29,154 nucleotides of DNA from a virus (lineage: Duplodnaviria > Caudoviricetes), in IMG/VR virus record IMGVR_UViG_3300025671_000362, positions 1 through 29,154 of that record. The stretch is one strand, 5' to 3'. The stretch's first letter is position 1. Every line of letters starts with the position of its first letter. The position numbers and the translations under genes are program-made. A model generated the notes under the pieces. The model saw only the letters and a list, made by a program, of their open reading frames with translations. It had not been told where the DNA came from and made no database searches. Positions 1 to 12,303 of this stretch are shown here, one piece after another.

Positions 1-24
1 AAGAGAAACTGTTTAGGAGGGACG

Positions 25-216
25 ATGTATTTAATGACGCTACATGGGACTACCAGGCGACCATTGAGTGAACGACTGCGAGAGAGGTTGGACAAGCTGG
101 ATTCAAAACCCAGCATGTTGTTCTGTGGGCAGTGCGAAACGCACAAGCCCAACCGTATGCCGTACTGGAAACCAGGCCATGCTCGATGTCGTCACTGTGA
201 AAGGATTAAAGGATGA
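25..216 (+). CDS. Small putative zinc-ribbon protein
   Basis: SD AGGAGG at 15-20; CGQC...CRHC pairs; ATGA overlap with the next gene. Confidence 0.65.
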   Translation: MYLMTLHGTTRRPLSERLRERLDKLDSKPSMLFCGQCETHKPNRMPYWKPGHARCRHCERIKG

Positions 217-398
217 GCTACCCGCACACGGGGAATCGACAGTGCCGCAACTGTCGACACTACAAGACTGCGGGGAACTTCAGACTGCCCTCCTCTTATA
301 TCTGGGGGATGTGTGGAGTGACTGGGGCAGATGAAGCACCCTTGCACTCCTGCGGATTTTGGGAGTGGGACGAAAACAGGAAGGAGAAGAAGGATTGA
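213..398 (+). CDS. Small Cys-rich hypothetical protein
   Basis: CRNCRH...GMC...HSCGFW pattern; coupled to neighbours at both ends (ATGA, TTGA). Confidence 0.65.
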   Translation: MSYPHTGNRQCRNCRHYKTAGNFRLPSSYIWGMCGVTGADEAPLHSCGFWEWDENRKEKKD

Positions 399-1510
399 GC
401 GAGAAGCGATGGAACGCTCCCAGAATCTGTGTGATGTGCGGAATGAAGTACATCCCTTTAGTAGCACGACAAAAAACCTGCGGAGAGATCTGCAGCAGAG
501 AATACAAACTAGAGCAGGAAAAACTGAAGTATCGGTCGGTCAATCCGAAACCGTGCATCGTCTGCAAAGAAATATTCCAGGCAGATCGACGAGCAAAAAC
601 CTGCAGTGAGGAATGCAGTCGCAAATGGCGGAACAGAAGGATTGGGAGAAAGTATCCACCCAAGAATTGTGTCGTCTGCAAGAAGGAATTTTACGGCAGT
701 CCTCGCGCAATCACCTGCAGTGCTGAGTGCAGTTATCAGTCGAAGTTAGAGAGAGCAAGGTTGGGGTTGTATCTAAAAGATCGACCTCCGAAACCTTGCG
801 AAACCTGCGGAACGATCTTTAAACCCAAGACACTATCCCATCGATTCTGTGGTCGAAAATGCTGGGAATCGAACCCCAGAAAACCTCCCCAGATTGTGGC
901 CTGTCTGCAATGTGGAAGTGACTATACGAAGATCAAAAGCCACCAGAAATACTGCTCTCCCGATTGTTTTGAGGAAGCAAGAAAGGAGAGAGCACAGCGA
1001 ACTAATTGGAAAGTCCGTGGGGTTCCAGAGAAGAAGGTGGTGAAGTGCAAGTCCTGCAACTTCCATTTTGAACAGAAGCACTCCCGCCACGTCTACTGTT
1101 CCGCAAGTTGTAATTCGGATGCCCAGCGAGAACGAGGACGACTGGCAACCCAGAATTCTCCGATTCGACCAAAGAAGTGTCTGCACTGCAAAGGGGAGTT
1201 CAAACCCAGAACTCGGAAGTCGATGGCAAAATTCTGCAGCCATGCTTGCCGAGGTGGGTATCAGGTAGGAAAGAGGCAGGAGAAGATTGACGAGCTCGAG
1301 AAGGAACAGAAGAACTTGGTTGAGCTGCAGAAAAAATGGGACGACTCATCGATTGAGATCCGAGATTGTCCTCCAGACACGGCATATGCCAAGGAGATCT
1401 GGGCCTATCTGAAGAAGGGGAAGACGATCACTCGGTACCTGCACCCGATTTGGGCAGTAGGCTCGACCATCAATGAGGAGGAAGAGGAACTGATTGAATT
1501 AGAAATTTAA
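395..1510 (+). CDS. Tandem zinc-finger protein (7 CxxC-x13/15-CxxxC treble-clef-like repeats, coiled coil, small C-terminal domain)
   Basis: Repeats CVMC..CGEIC, CIVC..CSEEC, CVVC..CSAEC, CETC..CGRKC, CLQC..CSPDC, CKSC..CSASC, CLHC..CSHAC. Start moved from 359 to TTG 395 (AGGAG at 382-386, overlaps the upstream stop). Confidence 0.8.
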   Translation: MSEKRWNAPRICVMCGMKYIPLVARQKTCGEICSREYKLEQEKLKYRSVNPKPCIVCKEIFQADRRAKTCSEECSRKWRNRRIGRKYPPKNCVVCKKEFYGSPRAITCSAECSYQSKLERARLGLYLKDRPPKPCETCGTIFKPKTLSHRFCGRKCWESNPRKPPQIVACLQCGSDYTKIKSHQKYCSPDCFEEARKERAQRTNWKVRGVPEKKVVKCKSCNFHFEQKHSRHVYCSASCNSDAQRERGRLATQNSPIRPKKCLHCKGEFKPRTRKSMAKFCSHACRGGYQVGKRQEKIDELEKEQKNLVELQKKWDDSSIEIRDCPPDTAYAKEIWAYLKKGKTITRYLHPIWAVGSTINEEEEELIELEI

Positions 1511-1511
1511 C

Positions 1512-1630
1512 GGTGCTGGGCAAAGTGGTTAGGGGAGTCCTCCCAAAATAAAATCCCCGCATTCATGTGCCACCTAATCAATACGGGGGTTTTTATAGTT
1601 TTCTCCCCCTACGATCTCAGCACCTCCTAA
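1512..1630 (+). ncRNA. Putative multibranch structured RNA with anti-SD-like loops
   Basis: Closing helix 1512-1520/1616-1624; inner helices 1526-1531/1575-1580, 1532-1536/1554-1558 and 1585-1589/1605-1609. G-U pairs favour the + strand. Confidence 0.45.
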
Positions 1631-1640
1631 CCCCACTGAT

Positions 1641-1845
1641 CTGCATCAGGCCCATCCTGTGGGTCTGGTAGAGACCAGTGAAAAGACTGCAAATCGAGAG
1701 ATGAAATCACGCTATATATCTCTCCAGCATTTTGCTGTCGTGCGCAGGAAATCTGTGAGGCTCAAGACAGACGGGTTTCTTTGAGGTTCTGCAGTCCAAA
1801 CTGATGCGGCTTACTTCGGACTTAGGCTCAAGGTGCTGGTCTCTG
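1641..1845 (+). ncRNA. Putative pseudoknotted structured RNA / leader of the replication operon
   Basis: Helices 1641-1649/1801-1809 and 1669-1679/1835-1845 (crossing), 1685-1691/1790-1796, 1696-1702/1718-1724, 1725-1729/1733-1737 and 1746-1756/1771-1781. Confidence 0.55.
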
Positions 1846-1866
1846 TTTCAACTGTTTTGGTGAATC

Positions 1867-2781
1867 ATGCGAATTCAATCCATGTGGTCTCCTGAACGGG
1901 GATGGCTCTGGTGGAGTCCACGAAAAAACGATTACACGATTCCGCACCTCAAGGATGGCAAGGTCTGGAATCACAATCAAAAAAGGTACGAAATGCTGGA
2001 ATACATCACAATGGGGAGGATGGACCTACCCTGGAAAGTTTTGATTCATGGACCACCAGGTGCGGGGAAGACCACACTGGCAAGCACCTTCCCCAATCCT
2101 GTCTTTGCAGACATGGAAGGATCTTCTGAGCGTTATGATGTTGCTCGGATTGATCTGAGGGATGTCCCGTTTGAGGTGCTTGATCCGAAGACCAAGAATC
2201 CAATCACACCAAAGCAAGATCCTGCCGTTTCTTCTGTCATGAACTTCTTGCGGACCCTGGCATCTCCCAAATCCAAACATGAATACAAGAGTCTGATCAT
2301 TGACACCCTGGACTGGCTGGAACCAAAGATCTGGGAGCATACCTGTCAAAAGATGGGGATTGCCTCAATGGAGACCTTGAACTACGGCAAAGCCTATGTT
2401 GAGGCAGACAAGGAATATGATGCCTTTCAGGGTGCCTTAAATTATTTGATGACTGCCAAACAGATGAACATTGTGGTCCTTGCCCATACGAAGACGAAGA
2501 TTACACAGGACAAGGACATGAATGAGATGCAACGGCATGACATCAAACTGCAGAATCGGGCATCTGCCAAGTTCGTTGAATGGGCCGAGGTCATTGGGTT
2601 TTTGACCTATGACACCTTCCTGTCGAAGAAGAATGGGAAGGAAACCGCAAAGCATACCGGAGACCGAATCCTGATTGTGCAGGAGGACGGACAGTATGTG
2701 GCAAAGAACCGATTCGGGTATCAGGGGGAACCCATCAAACCAGTAGATTACGACACACTCCGAGGAAAACTCTATGGCTAA
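1867..2781 (+). CDS. Sak4-like AAA ATPase (single-strand annealing recombinase, AAA_24-type)
   Basis: Walker A HGPPGAGKTT, Walker B LIIDTLDWLE, VLAH motif, C-terminal YVAKNRF; followed by an SSB-like gene as is typical for sak4. The real start may be ATG 1993 (MLEYITMGR, AAGGT upstream). Confidence 0.85.
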   Translation: MRIQSMWSPERGWLWWSPRKNDYTIPHLKDGKVWNHNQKRYEMLEYITMGRMDLPWKVLIHGPPGAGKTTLASTFPNPVFADMEGSSERYDVARIDLRDVPFEVLDPKTKNPITPKQDPAVSSVMNFLRTLASPKSKHEYKSLIIDTLDWLEPKIWEHTCQKMGIASMETLNYGKAYVEADKEYDAFQGALNYLMTAKQMNIVVLAHTKTKITQDKDMNEMQRHDIKLQNRASAKFVEWAEVIGFLTYDTFLSKKNGKETAKHTGDRILIVQEDGQYVAKNRFGYQGEPIKPVDYDTLRGKLYG

Positions 2782-3403
2782 ATCATTATTCAATGCTGCA
2801 AATCATGAGATCAGTGAACGGGTTCTGAAGTCAGGGAACTACCTTGCCAAGATCACCAGTATTGAAGATCAGGAGAAGGGCAGAGGGAATCAGTTTGTAC
2901 TCAAGTTCCTTGCCCCAGAGGGTCAGATCCGCCAGGGGTTCTGGTATGACCATGAGGTCGAAGCTGCAGAAAGAATTGGAAAGAATGATCTGAAACGAAT
3001 CTGTATCTACACAGGCAATCGAGACATTGATCTGCAGGAAGACCCCAGAACCTGGGAACCTCTGAAGGACAAACCGATTGCCATTGCGGTGCGGAGACAG
3101 AAGGACAAGGAAGGGAACTGGGGAACGTACACCAAGGATGGGGTTACCTATGACTCGTATGAGATTCAATTCTTTGCCTCTTCCAAGGAAGAGTTGCCGA
3201 GTTATGACCCTGATTTTGATGAGGAGGAGGATGAAGAGGATGATGCTCCTGCTGTCAAAACTCAGACACCGGATGTCGATCAAATCATGAAAAACGTTTC
3301 CAGAGGAGGCAATCATGAGCCAGCAGGATTCCACGCAGATCCACCAGCCGGAGCACCGAACCCAAAGAAAGAACCCGAAGTCGAAGATGATGTACCGTTC
3401 TGA
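2774..3403 (+). CDS. Single-stranded DNA-binding protein (DUF669-like)
   Basis: Directly after the Sak4-like gene; N-terminal GNYLAKITSIE; acidic linker; SSB-type C-terminal tail EDDVPF. Confidence 0.78.
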   Translation: MAKSLFNAANHEISERVLKSGNYLAKITSIEDQEKGRGNQFVLKFLAPEGQIRQGFWYDHEVEAAERIGKNDLKRICIYTGNRDIDLQEDPRTWEPLKDKPIAIAVRRQKDKEGNWGTYTKDGVTYDSYEIQFFASSKEELPSYDPDFDEEEDEEDDAPAVKTQTPDVDQIMKNVSRGGNHEPAGFHADPPAGAPNPKKEPEVEDDVPF

Positions 3404-5681
3404 CCATCGGATTACTCGCTTTGAAGGAGTCACCGATACCCTGAGTGTGTCGGATGAAACCCTCTGCAGTTTTGTGGAGATCGTCCGGTCAGGTAGTTTT
3501 AAGGACAGCAGAGGGGTTCCGCAACGGTTTGGGAAGAAGATCATCAAACTGCGGGGGTATCTGGAGTCTGGGGAGAAGAAGACCTACGACACCAACAAGA
3601 AGAAACTGCTGGGGGTGACTTTGACCGGAGTCTTCCGTGAAGGAAGGCATGACCGCGACCTGACCGACTACTCTGGTCTGGTGCATGTTGATCTGGACAA
3701 GCTGACCGTGGAACAGGTGCAGTCGTACCGAGAGATTCTTGAGAAAGATCCCTTTGTCCTGGTGGTCTTTGTCAGTGCATCAGGGAGAGGGTTGAAGGTG
3801 ATCTGCTGGCATCCTCTGGGGTCAGAGTATCATGAACAGGTGTACTGGATCTTCCGCAGTCATGTCCAGCAGTTGGTGACATGTCACGATGAGGCCATTG
3901 ATGATTCAGTACGGAACCTCTCCCGTCTGTGCTTTGTCTCCCACGATCCCAGTGCCTACCTGAACCTGGAGGCATCTCCGATTGTTTCTACAGTTGAGGA
4001 TCTGGGAGAGATGGACTTCCGTGACATGTCACAGAAGGAGGAGGAGAACCCTGAACCTCCGAAACCGGAAAAGAAGTCCAAGTCTCTCTTTGATGCTTCC
4101 AGACATACGATCTTTGATGATGGGAAGTCTTATGAGAAGTATGGTGCTGCTGTCCTTGATGCTGCCTGTGACATGATCCGTGCTGCGGCACCAGGGCAGA
4201 AACATCAGACCCGTCTGTATCGGGCAAGGACAGTGGCTGGATTTGTCTCTGGGGGATACATCGAGGAGTCCGTTGCCTTACAGAGACTGATCTCTGCAGC
4301 TCTCGACAATACTGATGACCCCAGACTCGCAGAGAAGGACATTCGGGATGGGTTTGAACATGGGAAACGAGAACCTCTGGAAGTTCCTGATCCTGATCCG
4401 CAGTTCTTTAGTGGAGGATTTGGCAAAGGTGGGGAAGAAGGTCCAAAGGTCCGACAGGCTGATCCAGACATGGATGAGAAACTGAAGAAGGTTAAAGGGG
4501 TTGCTGAAGAGTTTGCCGAGGGTTCTGCAGAAGGTGAGGAGAAATTCAAACGCAAGAATCCCTTCATTCTGTTAAGGGACTTCCTTACGGATGTGCGGCC
4601 TCCTCAGTATCTGGTGCAGGGGGTTCTGGAAGCCAATTCCTTTGTGACCTTGATTGGAGAACCTGCTTCTGGGAAGTCCTTCCTTGCCATCGATTGGGCC
4701 TGCTGTATTGCTTCAGGACATGACTGGCATGGAAGAACTGTCAAGCAGGGTTCTGTGATCTACATGGCAGGAGAAGGTCAGGATAATATGAAGAGTCGAT
4801 TTTTCGCCTGGAGAGATCGGTTTGGCAAGAACCCACTGGATCAAATCCTGATGCGTTTGGATAGTCCTATTCTGAACAATCAGGAAGTTGTGCAACAAAC
4901 CTATGAGGATCTGCAGGAAGCCATTGAAGTCACCGGACCACCAAAACTGATCGTGATTGATACCCTGGCACGACACTACGGGGGAGATGAGAACGATACC
5001 CAACAGATGAATCGGTTCGTCAACTGCCTGCAGGTCCTGCGTTACGAATACCAGTGCTCTGTGCTGATTGTTCACCATGTGGGGAAAGATAAAACCAAGG
5101 GAGGTCGAGGATCTTCTGTCCTGCATGGTGCTGTCGATGCCTCCTATATGACAGAACGCACCAATGATCTCAATGATCCCAATGCTCCCACCAAACAATT
5201 CCGACTGAAGAACATTAAGATGAAGGATGGAACGGCACCGAAAGATCAGTTTCTGGATCTGATGGGGTCCAAGGTTCATCGTCTGGATGGTCATCCTCTG
5301 TATTATGATGATGGGGTGACTCCTGTTACAAGTTGTTACCTTTTACCGAATGAGGAAGCTGCAGAAAGTTTTGAGGGGTTTGAGGCTGGAGGGAGTTCAC
5401 AGGGAAAGAAACCGAAGGAGATTGAGATCAAGGCGTTTGAGGCATTTTTAGAACTGTGGGAAAAAGGGAAGGAAAACCTATTAGAATCCGGTGGAAGTCT
5501 GCAAGATTTAACGGTTGATCCAGAGGACTGGTCGAGCAAATGTAAATCACCAAAATATAATTTATCTCGGTTTAATGTGAGTGATATTCGGAACAATAAA
5601 CGAAGCGCATTTAATTACTTTCATTCTAAGGTAATTGTGGATAGAAAGCATATGATTTTGAAGGAAACTAATGAGGTGTAG
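3315..5681 (+). CDS. Primase-helicase fusion (BT4734/VirE-N-like primase domain, helical domain, RepA/AAA_25-type helicase)
   Basis: GLVHVDLD, VSASGRGLK and SRLCFVSHD in the N-terminus; Walker A GEPASGKS, Walker B LIVIDT, VHHVGK..RGSS. SD GGAGG at 3305-3309; alternative start 3387/3390. Confidence 0.88.
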   Translation: MSQQDSTQIHQPEHRTQRKNPKSKMMYRSDHRITRFEGVTDTLSVSDETLCSFVEIVRSGSFKDSRGVPQRFGKKIIKLRGYLESGEKKTYDTNKKKLLGVTLTGVFREGRHDRDLTDYSGLVHVDLDKLTVEQVQSYREILEKDPFVLVVFVSASGRGLKVICWHPLGSEYHEQVYWIFRSHVQQLVTCHDEAIDDSVRNLSRLCFVSHDPSAYLNLEASPIVSTVEDLGEMDFRDMSQKEEENPEPPKPEKKSKSLFDASRHTIFDDGKSYEKYGAAVLDAACDMIRAAAPGQKHQTRLYRARTVAGFVSGGYIEESVALQRLISAALDNTDDPRLAEKDIRDGFEHGKREPLEVPDPDPQFFSGGFGKGGEEGPKVRQADPDMDEKLKKVKGVAEEFAEGSAEGEEKFKRKNPFILLRDFLTDVRPPQYLVQGVLEANSFVTLIGEPASGKSFLAIDWACCIASGHDWHGRTVKQGSVIYMAGEGQDNMKSRFFAWRDRFGKNPLDQILMRLDSPILNNQEVVQQTYEDLQEAIEVTGPPKLIVIDTLARHYGGDENDTQQMNRFVNCLQVLRYEYQCSVLIVHHVGKDKTKGGRGSSVLHGAVDASYMTERTNDLNDPNAPTKQFRLKNIKMKDGTAPKDQFLDLMGSKVHRLDGHPLYYDDGVTPVTSCYLLPNEEAAESFEGFEAGGSSQGKKPKEIEIKAFEAFLELWEKGKENLLESGGSLQDLTVDPEDWSSKCKSPKYNLSRFNVSDIRNNKRSAFNYFHSKVIVDRKHMILKETNEV

Positions 5682-9540: not shown

Positions 9541-10062
9541 ATGGTCCTCTCTGACGAAAAACTGATGGAATTGATTCACAGTGGCTACATCCCCAGTGAT
9601 GTCCATTTGGGACCCTGTTCAGTGGATCTGACTCTGGCAGAAGACTACCTAGTGCCACACTTACCAGAAGATCGTCCGTACATCACGGTCACAGAAGACT
9701 ACCCCCACCGTCTGGCCCCCGTTGAGACCTTTGTTCTCTACCCACAGAAGTTTGTGTTGGCCTCAACGAATGAACTGATCAAGATTCCAGATCATATGTG
9801 CGGAGTCGTGCATGGGAGATCGAGTGTGGGAAGGTTGGGCATCCAAGTACAGAATGCAGGTTTCATCGACGCTGGATTTGTAGGGCAGATCACCCTGGAA
9901 CTGGTGAATCAGAGCAATGCTCCAGTCCTGCTGAAACCAATGATGCGGATCTGCCAGCTCGTGATGCACAACCTACATGGACAGTCGAAGCGCCCATACC
10001 GAGGGAAGTACCAGGGGCAGGTGGGTCCCACTCCATCGAGGATCAAGGAGGACGAGGAGTGA
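9541..10062 (+). CDS. dcd: dCTP deaminase
   Basis: MVLSD start, PCSVDLTL, GRSSVGRLG, AGFIDAGFVGQITLEL, RICQL, YRGKYQGQ. SD GGAG at 9530-9533 supports start 9541 rather than 9463. Confidence 0.93.
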   Translation: MVLSDEKLMELIHSGYIPSDVHLGPCSVDLTLAEDYLVPHLPEDRPYITVTEDYPHRLAPVETFVLYPQKFVLASTNELIKIPDHMCGVVHGRSSVGRLGIQVQNAGFIDAGFVGQITLELVNQSNAPVLLKPMMRICQLVMHNLHGQSKRPYRGKYQGQVGPTPSRIKEDEE

Positions 10063-11057
10063 GAACCCATCTCGATCTCTTCAGTGGGATTGGAGGTTTT
10101 GCGCTTGCTGCAGGTTGGGCAGGTTTCACCACAGTAGGATTTGTAGAATATGAAGATTTTCCAAGAAGAATTCTGGGGAAACAGTTCCCAGGTATACCCA
10201 TCCATTCAGACATCCACGACTTTGACGCAACCCCCTTCCGAGGAGTTGACCTCATCACAGGCGGATTCCCGTGCCAACCGTTCAGTGCTGCCGGGAAGCA
10301 AAGAGGCAAGGAAGATGACCGTTGGCTCTGGAAGGAAATGCTCCGAGTTATTGTCGAAGCACAACCCACTTGGGTCCTTGCTGAAAACGTTGCTGGTCTC
10401 ATCAACATGGCACTCGACGAGGTGCTGGCTGACCTGGAAGCCCAAGACTACGCCACGGCAACGGTTATACTTCCAGCTTGTGCCAAGAATGCCCTCCACC
10501 GCAGAGACCGAGTCTGGATCATTGCAAAGCGGGATGCTGGGAACCCCAACAGCAGTGTCAAAGGCAAGATCAGAGAGATTCCAAGCAGGCAATCGGATTC
10601 CGAATCCAGAGGAGTTCGTCCAGATGTGGCCTACCCCGAGGGCAACGGACTTCAAGGGGGCAGGGCCAGGAACAAACGATCAGAGTATTCAGAAGAGGTT
10701 GGACAACGGAACCAAGAATCTCTCCGAAACAGTGCAGGCAGTACAGAGGGGGATGTGGCCCACTCCGACAGCAAACGAGGATGCAGCAGGGACTCCGAAC
10801 GGCAAGATGCAGAGGATGCTGGGCAATCATCCAGAAGTACGCAACACGGGACAGGGAAGTTTGTCGGCAGACTGGACGGAGCAGTTGATGGGATATTCAG
10901 CGGGTTGGACTTCCCTCGACGATGGGGAGACGGATCCTGGGAAGACGGAATCCCTAGAGTGACCACACAGAAGAAGGGAAGAACCCAACGACTGAAGGCA
11001 CTAGGCAACTCGATTTTACCACAGGTTGCCTACGAGATCATCCGACATTTCGACTAA
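10059..11057 (+). CDS. DNA (cytosine-5)-methyltransferase, catalytic (alpha-like) chain
   Basis: GTG start overlaps the dcd stop. Motif I DLFSGIGG, IV GGFPCQPFS, VI ENV, VIII HRRDRVWI, X LKALGNS; no motif IX recognisable in this frame. Confidence 0.92.
   Translation: MRTHLDLFSGIGGFALAAGWAGFTTVGFVEYEDFPRRILGKQFPGIPIHSDIHDFDATPFRGVDLITGGFPCQPFSAAGKQRGKEDDRWLWKEMLRVIVEAQPTWVLAENVAGLINMALDEVLADLEAQDYATATVILPACAKNALHRRDRVWIIAKRDAGNPNSSVKGKIREIPSRQSDSESRGVRPDVAYPEGNGLQGGRARNKRSEYSEEVGQRNQESLRNSAGSTEGDVAHSDSKRGCSRDSERQDAEDAGQSSRSTQHGTGKFVGRLDGAVDGIFSGLDFPRRWGDGSWEDGIPRVTTQKKGRTQRLKALGNSILPQVAYEIIRHFD
10150..10962 (+). CDS. Nested +1-frame ORF: putative beta chain of the methyltransferase (PTP repeats plus motif IX-like segment)
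   Basis: 270 stop-free codons inside the MTase gene; repeats MLGTPTA, MWPTPRA, MWPTPTA; C-terminal LSADWTEQLMGYSAGWT resembles motif IX. Start uncertain. Confidence 0.65.
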   Translation: MKIFQEEFWGNSSQVYPSIQTSTTLTQPPSEELTSSQADSRANRSVLPGSKEARKMTVGSGRKCSELLSKHNPLGSLLKTLLVSSTWHSTRCWLTWKPKTTPRQRLYFQLVPRMPSTAETESGSLQSGMLGTPTAVSKARSERFQAGNRIPNPEEFVQMWPTPRATDFKGAGPGTNDQSIQKRLDNGTKNLSETVQAVQRGMWPTPTANEDAAGTPNGKMQRMLGNHPEVRNTGQGSLSADWTEQLMGYSAGWTSLDDGETDPGKTESLE

Positions 11058-11413: not shown

Positions 11414-11590
11414 ATGAAACCAGGACTCTACGCGAACATCCACAAGAAGAAAAAGAGGATTGCCGCACAGAAAGCGGCAAAGAAGGCAGGCAAGAATGTG
11501 AAGGTGGAGAAAATGCGAAAACCTGGATCGGCAGGCGCACCGACTGCCAAGGCATTCAAAGAATCCGCAAAAACGGCAAAGAAGAAGTGA
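11414..11590 (+). CDS. Small Lys/Ala-rich basic protein
   Basis: MKPGLYANIH...KMRKPGSAGAPTAKAFKESAKTAKKK; ATG 1 nt after the upstream stop; GTGA overlap downstream. Confidence 0.78.
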   Translation: MKPGLYANIHKKKKRIAAQKAAKKAGKNVKVEKMRKPGSAGAPTAKAFKESAKTAKKK

Positions 11591-12303
11591 GGAAACTAGA
11601 ATACCAGCAGGGACTGCTGGATGAACCGACAGATTTGGACGAATCCGACTTTCTGGAATCCATTGCCCGAACAATCTTCCGCAAGGGAGGAGGTTTGCTC
11701 GGAGAACTGCTGAACCCTGCAGAGACTGGTCTGGACGAAGGATACCTCGATGATCAGGGGAGACTGGTTGTCACAGAACCCCTGGTGCGGGAGAGGAACT
11801 TCCGCAACTGGTTTGGAGACAGCAAGGTCGTTGATGAGGAGGGCAAGCCTTTAGTGGTGTATCACGGAACAGGTGCAGATATTAAAGAAATTAAACCTGC
11901 AGGACGACAAGACAAGTCCTCAGAAGAAGCACTGGATTGGTTTAGAGACCGAATTTCAAAAAACAGGAATATCCCTCTGCACAGTTGGCGGATGGGGTCC
12001 TTCTTTTCGCCAAAACCAGAATACACCGATAGTTATACAAATGAAGGCAAGGGGATGGTCTATCCGGTTTATTTAAAAGCAGAGAACCCTGCTTGGAGAG
12101 ACAACGTGGAGAAAACGTACAAGGTAACAAATCCGAAGAAAACTCCTGATGCGTTGATCATTCACCACAATGGAGACATCAACGAGATCGTTGTCCCAGA
12201 CCCAACCCAGATCAAGAGCATCCACAACCGTGGAACGTACAACCCAGATGATCCTGACTTGCTAGGAATGAACACAATGAACATGAGCCTACTCTATGGC
12301 TGA
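11587..12303 (+). CDS. Putative ADP-ribosyltransferase (ART-PolyVal-like domain)
   Basis: NFRNWFGDSKVVDEEGKPLVVYHGT, GSFFSP, VYPVYLKAENP and NEIVVPDPTQIKSIHNRGTY match my recollection of the ART domain of phage/plasmid polyvalent proteins. Confidence 0.75.
   Translation: MRKLEYQQGLLDEPTDLDESDFLESIARTIFRKGGGLLGELLNPAETGLDEGYLDDQGRLVVTEPLVRERNFRNWFGDSKVVDEEGKPLVVYHGTGADIKEIKPAGRQDKSSEEALDWFRDRISKNRNIPLHSWRMGSFFSPKPEYTDSYTNEGKGMVYPVYLKAENPAWRDNVEKTYKVTNPKKTPDALIIHHNGDINEIVVPDPTQIKSIHNRGTYNPDDPDLLGMNTMNMSLLYG

Follow-up and report, generated by a model that had tools for sequence, protein, structure and literature searches.

A putative small RNA of a marine temperate phage and its chromosomal relatives in SAR324 bacteria

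The C4 RNA of phages P1 and P7 (RF01695), as presented in the available part of PMC5320573, is cut by RNase P at a GGU and uses one loop for the ribosome-binding site and another for specificity. The cuckoo family and CcsR sRNAs of the alphaproteobacteria, in the portion of PMC4615179 that deals with them, consist of two to four adjacent hairpins, each with CCUCCUCCC. DicF, AgvB, AsxR, VpdS and PreS, in the accessible portion of PMC12197685, are sRNAs of phages and prophages directed at mRNAs or sRNAs of the host, DicF blocking the cell-division mRNA ftsZ and AgvB mimicking a target, and some of the phage sRNAs treated there work via Hfq. CsrB/RsmZ-type sponges carry many loop GGA motifs on the transcribed strand, and the CsrA consensus is RUACARGGAUGU (both from an extract of PMC7652899). 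6S RNA, of which a cell usually has only one, and SRP RNA are each conserved, structured and independent of other genes, and are closed by a long stem.

Here we describe RNA A, which lies on the + strand of the window (the whole stretch of viral DNA that was analysed, 29,154 nucleotides), in the early operon of a marine, temperate phage, and which resembles 6S and SRP RNA in the general respects just given. Compared with C4 as set out in that part of PMC5320573, it is likewise a three-helix RNA of a phage in which P1 opens with GGU, with two single-stranded seeds, one of them suited to ribosome-binding sites, and with similar structures among chromosomal paralogues. Unlike C4, it is not matched by the RF01695 model, is about 115 nucleotides long rather than about 77, has generic anti-Shine-Dalgarno (anti-SD) and anti-AUG seeds, accompanies no a/b target sites above shuffles in five phage contigs, and has its closest relatives among host chromosomal RNAs. 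With the cuckoo and CcsR RNAs, within the same portion of PMC4615179, it shares a conserved C-rich anti-SD loop on a freely varying stem and, as a family, several paralogues per genome; it differs in having one UCCUCCC (or variant) loop, in the placement of that loop inside a three-way junction, in a conserved UCAU bulge and in phylum. RNA A thus fails cuckoo membership on its hairpin arrangement and C4 membership on model and targets, and the first-pass annotation of this DNA, which had placed it beside the C4 and CI RNAs, is not upheld in this respect, with neither an Rfam match nor cis targets above shuffles in the five contigs. Temperate-phage origin and, by inference, a rewiring of host translation are shared with DicF and its companions, whereas AgvB mimics a target and RNA A is homologous to the sRNA itself, and the probable host of RNA A is without Hfq; none of the phage sRNAs covered in that portion of PMC12197685 is presented as homologous, in the same sense, to an sRNA family of the chromosome. 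A sponge of the CsrB/RsmZ type was rejected because the GGA motifs lie on the minus strand and the G.U pairs favour the + strand.

RNA A may be taken to represent a new RNA family that would, by analogy, act like the anti-SD sRNAs and has C4-like ends. The literature searched, which included the accessible part of PMC2864571 and mostly excluded subscription papers, held neither a description of this family nor a small-RNA study of SAR324. The names of five contigs were absent from the supplement of PMC10690425, three files of which lay outside the search, and the motif may be in that catalogue. The features to which we refer are as follows.

359..1510, + strand: gene for a CxxC-repeat protein, directly upstream of RNA A; PHROG matches annotated HNH endonuclease fall on the repeat part
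1512..1627, + strand: RNA A, three-way-junction small RNA, phage member of an uncatalogued SAR324 family (17 distinct phage alleles; host-only model match; covariation)
1512..1520, + strand: P1 5' strand, pairing with 1616-1624; GGU start, one base past the stop codon of the upstream gene
1525..1529, + strand: P2 5' strand, pairing with 1569-1573
1532..1558, + strand: P2b hairpin (1532-1536/1554-1558); pairing kept, stem sequence wholly different between alleles and between phage and host
1538..1544, + strand: conserved apical loop motif UCCUCCC, then an A-rich run; complementary to Shine-Dalgarno sequences
1563..1568, + strand: conserved bulge motif UCAUGU, complementary to the start codon and its neighbours
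1577..1615, + strand: P3 arm, a near-invariant AUC/GAU helix, then a GGGGG/CCCCC stem and a variable U-rich loop
1616..1627, + strand: P1 3' strand and unpaired NCC tail (tRNA-like end); CC invariant in 17/17 phage alleles
1636..1844, + strand: RNA B, a second conserved multi-branched structure; 98.4% of cells paired, 16/48 pairs changed on both sides
1867..2781, + strand: gene for a Sak4-like annealing protein, downstream; different genes occupy this slot in relatives

Fold of RNA A and its phage alleles

Scans of viral and metagenome collections yielded 49 loci with RNA A, many of them the same contigs, and these reduce to 17 distinct alleles; loci that matched the motifs and had no flanking stems were left out as chance. 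Further motif scans for viral copies turned up another 4 and 54 loci, all of them lacking the full architecture. The + strand of RNA A folds better than its shuffles (z -3.04, with 0 of 200 shuffles as good), the corresponding value for the minus strand being -1.58, and the G.U pairs of the RNA favour the + strand. The first-pass annotation had proposed a closed, structured RNA, and in this it is borne out by the fold and by the conservation of the closing helix 1512-1520/1616-1624, which contains one G.U and of which the outer 8 pairs are kept in 17/17 alleles. One P1 pair is U-A in phage and A-U in host, and the G.U at the junction is present in 45/48 sequences. The P2b helix is changed on both sides at all 7 pairs of the model and has three sequence types among the phage alleles, arranged around the loop UCCUCCC. 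Its length, read by eye from the alignment, is 5-8 bp, an automatic measure being confounded by alternative pairings.

Stem covariation, which the earlier reader had suggested as a check, is evident. In the phage alleles alone, fitted to the model, 8 of the 26 pairs are changed on both sides, and in a joint alignment of 48 distinct phage and host sequences, which is also fitted and hence leans towards the model, 92% of cells are paired and 22/26 pairs are so changed. Covariation of this strength excludes a chance origin. For the window allele taken singly, the minimum free energy structure (-43 kcal/mol) is a cross-paired alternative fold, and the comparative fold comes to about -35 to -36.

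The loop UCCUCCC is predicted to be unpaired with a probability of 0.78-0.95. CCUCC is found in 17/17 phage and 28/31 host sequences, and so is UCAU, the longer UCAUGU being present in 16 and 24 of them respectively. Throughout the alleles and paralogues the stems are free to vary around fixed CCUCC and UCAU, a pattern that points to sRNAs that present seeds.

The first-pass annotation had read the same region as a scaffold of four arms, each the complement of a ribosome-binding site. All the letters and complements that it quoted are present where it placed them, and it was correct in seeing a structured, non-coding, + strand phage RNA with exposed anti-SD and anti-AUG motifs; the ends of this RNA, GGU and a stem followed by NCC, resemble those of C4. 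The four arms themselves fare unequally. Within 1537-1553, UCCUCCC at 1538-1544 forms the hairpin loop in all alleles. Only part of 1560-1575 is exposed, 1559-1568 being unpaired and CCAC (1570-1573) being the 3' strand of P2, and the target proposed for this segment would leave just 3 nt to separate SD from AUG. The 3' CC of 1591-1606 is in a stem, and the centre, which was expected to face AUG, is ATAG in only 4/17 alleles. The supposed anti-SD core at 1621-1628 consists of CACC, a strand of P1, and a variable tail. The match of 1623-1630 to the Shine-Dalgarno sequence TTAGGAGG at 13-20 is real and unconserved, since the contig L001 has CTAGGAGG there. Neither four independent arms nor pairing with the Shine-Dalgarno sequence at 13-20 is thereby supported, for outside the two conserved unpaired motifs the quoted segments lie in stem strands or are variable.

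Taken together, a four-arm scaffold, a minus-strand peptide gene and mere chance are explanations that we consider highly improbable and already largely refuted. Complements can indeed be written for this one allele; two of the four segments are nevertheless stem strands or variable, the minus-strand reading frame is open in 5/17 alleles and stops after 2-7 codons in the other 12, the G.U pairs favour the + strand, and chance is countered by the covariation.

The phage, its probable host and the chromosomal copies

The window encodes Sak4, a primase-helicase, a terminase, an SU10-type portal and capsid proteins, all on the + strand. L001, which is identical to the window over RNA A, reaches 4 kb further left, into an integrase gene (PF00589) and divergent HTH genes. 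There, a stretch that by eye looks like the 3' half of a tRNA-Arg, and in which ARAGORN finds no whole tRNA, matches over 41 bases three contigs of the GTDB collection, one of them titled SAR324, and the genomes behind all three belong to one genus. This match to a putative att core makes SAR324 bacteria the likely host. Phage contigs and host-like contigs also co-occur in one metatranscriptome run. SAR324 is a marine lineage and is widespread.

Chromosomal relatives of RNA A, which the first-pass annotation had overlooked together with the second structured RNA that follows it, came to light through a search for complements of the loop in 45 genomes of the host family. This returned one recurring intergenic site, which is not a gene start and which was rejected as a target, since its opposite strand is itself the gene of an RNA with the loop, the bulge and the three helices of RNA A. 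An unfitted alignment of 18 host copies has 91% of cells paired and 6 pairs with changes at both positions. RNA A in the window is detected even when the model is made exclusively from host copies (36.4 bits, E 7e-6). Applied to 26 sources (238 kb), this host-only model gave 18 matches, every one of them the phage element, in 18 of the 18 sources that hold it, and no other match at E up to 1; these E-values are not fully independent, because the host copies were first located by means of the phage motifs. RNA A and these chromosomal small RNAs of SAR324 are homologous, RNA A being the phage-borne member of the family.

With the joint model, 43 places were found in 25 of 88 genomes of the SAR324 phylum, a count subject to strict filters and incomplete genomes, with up to 5 copies per genome, and all 43 fall within a single family of 45 genomes. 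The host family is detectable only through motif and model; BLAST of RNA A and RNA B against the 88 genomes gave only short chance matches. Rfam has no match at RNA A in the window (up to E 5) or at 15 host loci. Identity with 6S RNA (RF00013) or bacterial SRP RNA (RF00169) was considered and dropped, as neither matches at the RNA and each has a separate gene elsewhere in 5/5 hosts. The 16S RNA of SAR324 ends in GGAUCACCUCCUUU, which matches the loop of RNA A and, as ACCUCCU, that of several paralogues.

The host copies are intergenic, the genes that they face run in either orientation, and by eye several copies are preceded by promoter-like hexamers and followed by a hairpin with a U-run; from this siting and these signals of their own we infer that they act in trans. 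The P3 loop is short in most of them, and their junction bases are near-invariant. A group of paralogues ahead of tctC has the AAUCAAUACGGG junction of the phage. In the host genus, three copies (L510, L512 and L513) follow the stop codon of a gene for a protein of 233-247 aa; a gene with weak replication-initiator matches comes after the RNA in L510 and L512, a bacterioferritin gene adjoins L512, and one copy has a resolvase gene nearby (seen in L516). This arrangement is suggestive of the RNA having been captured a second time, by a mobile element.

Two further observations concern individual host loci. At L310-L313, paralogues precede an operon of genes for a solute-binding protein and a DtxR-type repressor, and on their other side is a palindrome that we take to resemble a DtxR/SirR-type box; these are possible metal-regulated members. 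In one genome a CRISPR spacer (L316:1531-1566, G061:C71) is identical over 36 bases to that genome's own copy of the RNA; the array is of type III (Cas10, Csm genes, Cas1), with no reverse transcriptase seen.

Mode of action and candidate targets

The interpretation towards which we lean is that RNA A, as a homologue of the SAR324 family, is a putative sRNA that is excised from an early transcript and represses the translation of host mRNAs by pairing through its loop and bulge. RNase P would cut the phage transcript at the GGU, a step suggested because the GGU start, stem and NCC end are as in C4 RNA. The loop UCCUCCC would then pair with the Shine-Dalgarno sequence and the bulge UCAUGU with the start codon, UCAU, the complement of AUGA, serving as one seed and the anti-SD loop as the second. 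For a single mRNA the two motifs are reversed in sequence order; across the end of P2 their order is right, and the P2b stem of 5-8 bp could span the SD-AUG spacer. Hfq is absent from the five host genomes tested, CsrA is present in all five, and the pairing would be independent of Hfq. As to expression, part of the region 1-4000 is present in ten RNA runs, and in the four runs compared, contigs span RNA A (as alleles of relatives) and its flanks alike; because these contigs cover the flanks and carry neither strand nor ends, they give no evidence of a discrete RNA A. No promoter-like site was found ahead of the phage copy.

Among the findings that count against this preferred reading is the conservation of the three-way-junction core, which exceeds what antisense pairing by itself would demand. 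A protein or ligand might instead recognise the conserved junction (GGNAAU, AAUCGAU, AAGAUGUCU) together with both motifs, the phage copy being a decoy that titrates a host factor. The near-invariance of the junction in host copies, the failure of the mRNA target searches, and the position of some paralogues, which are upstream of transporter genes and separated from them by a hairpin and U-run, one group lying beside a DtxR-type repressor gene, would all fit. Recognition of this kind is nonetheless unlikely in our estimation: the phage copy has altered part of the junction and yet retained both single-stranded motifs, the copies of the probable host genus have convergent downstream genes, which rules out a cis sensor there, and the bases flanking the motifs differ among paralogues, as expected of seeds for different targets.

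A third proposal, that RNA A is an immunity RNA of the C4/CI type regulating the phage's own genes, draws on the temperate phage, the early operon, the GGU start, the NCC end and the three helices, and on early-gene starts of the form GAGGAC-RC-AUG, which give two 5-6 bp matches. However, five phage contigs, two with a completeness of 95% and 100%, contain on both strands no complementary site that exceeds the shuffled controls, the variable loop covaries with no phage site, and the motifs are common to host copies lying outside prophages, so that we regard such a role as very unlikely. The first-pass annotation had likewise found no full-length target in the window, and our search there agrees, with none above shuffles.

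Searches of the host were also largely negative. In five host genomes a two-site pattern of SD and RYAUGAR gave 33 matches, as against 52 in a reversed control, and complements were not enriched at start codons, the annotation's own proposed test. Exact complements of the loop in 45 genomes lie mostly away from gene starts, and SD+AUG patterns at 60 loci included few true starts and no clear recurring target. For 314 genes, called heuristically in 400 kb of the genome G003 (about a tenth of one genome), loop pairing was no better at start regions than in mid-gene windows, and bulge pairing was slightly better at starts. Three candidates were discarded: a coxM-like start, the only recurring SD+AUG candidate, is weak and has an open upstream frame; a bacterioferritin gene, present in 6/45 genomes, matches well in one genome and loses the match in an orthologue; and the loop complement of an iron-linked paralogue, at 15 loci, gave no convincing target.

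The best lead is ftsA, which of the 314 genes has the highest rank with host seeds and the next highest with phage seeds and is the top two-site match in the G003 gene set; chance is expected to give about one such start per 314. Ahead of its start lies GAGGAGCAUGG, non-coding and near-invariant in 30 loci from the 40 genomes with the gene; the upstream reading frame ends 154-350 bases earlier, some genomes having an in-frame stop just before GAGGAGCAUGG, and none of three control genes (ftsZ and two others) shows comparable conservation of the start region. As a fragment, the bulge of the window allele pairs over 10 bp across the ftsA start codon. When whole RNA A was cofolded with the ftsA leader, no net binding resulted, loop-loop contacts being outside the reach of the method. 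At the ftsA site the two paired blocks adjoin, with no spacer to separate them; the site is identical in genomes without a detected RNA and fits the CsrA consensus, and in its one variant, in G049, the CsrA motif is kept and the RNA pairing is broken. We therefore treat ftsA as a lead only, which would be equally explained as a CsrA site. Apart from RNA A, the SAR324 ftsA leader (L448-L477) is itself of note as 150-350 non-coding bases with a near-invariant GAGGAGCAUGGAUG end; GAGGAGCAUGGAUG resembles a textbook CsrA hairpin over the start codon, and CsrA may control cell division here.

RNA A might interfere with the Csr system if it paired with CsrA sites that contain GGA, either on mRNAs (ftsA, for example) or on CsrA-sequestering RNAs. 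The hosts have CsrA and are without Hfq, the commonest phage bulge can form pairs, one of them G.U, with a sequence resembling the SELEX consensus given in the extract of PMC7652899, and AUGGAUG occurs at the ftsA site and where two phage genes that follow RNA B begin. This we think quite improbable, since the paralogues keep UCAU and vary the flanking GU, which is a better fit to AUGA than to ACANGGA.

A more ambitious form of the repression that we favour can be offered only tentatively, and we hold it to be doubtful. The RNA would be a protein-free clamp on the translation start, with copies of the 16S anti-SD tail and of the initiator anticodon held a fixed helix apart; it would define a family of regulators in the Hfq-less SAR324, which a temperate phage and another mobile element would each have acquired separately, and the phage bulge, extended over the ftsA start codon, would block host cell division. 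Whatever its targets, SAR324 gains a conserved, multi-copy candidate regulator, and a phage with its own homologue of a host sRNA is unlike the target mimics and unrelated sRNAs in the accessible portion of PMC12197685. If the two-seed geometry is true, it would be a compact design for Hfq-independent translational silencing.

RNA B and the neighbouring genes

In the relatives examined the CxxC-repeat gene is always directly upstream of RNA A and its stop codon abuts the RNA. Its product in the window has 383 aa, made up of tandem CxxC-CxxxC repeats and a conserved C-terminal domain that is found only in 12 close relatives. RNA B, which follows RNA A, is separable from it, for in one lineage a 78-codon HTH-like reading frame lies between them (L050:1499-1735). 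It has no match in Rfam and was found in 0/45 host genomes. Group I intron, RNase P, tmRNA, SRP and riboswitch identities were tried by eye against their motifs, and none held across the alleles. About half of the alleles have, by eye, a kink-turn-like internal loop, and there is a conserved loop motif, ACGCUAU. At its 3' end RNA B has GGUGCUGG, a repeat of the sequence with which RNA A opens and a potential partner for the 3' strand of RNA A.

Some observations on the phage genes may be recorded here. GAGGAC-RC-AUG starts several early genes (L001:3327-3350, L013, L042, L050), with an unusually short spacing between SD and AUG, and GGAG-(C/A)A-AUGGAUG is the start of two genes behind RNA B. 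A 419-codon reading frame at 9798-11057, the start of which resembles a DNA cytosine methyltransferase, overlaps in another frame the methyltransferase reading frame at 10150-10962. Just ahead of the portal gene, at 11587-12303, is a gene with an ART-PolyVal ADP-ribosyltransferase domain.
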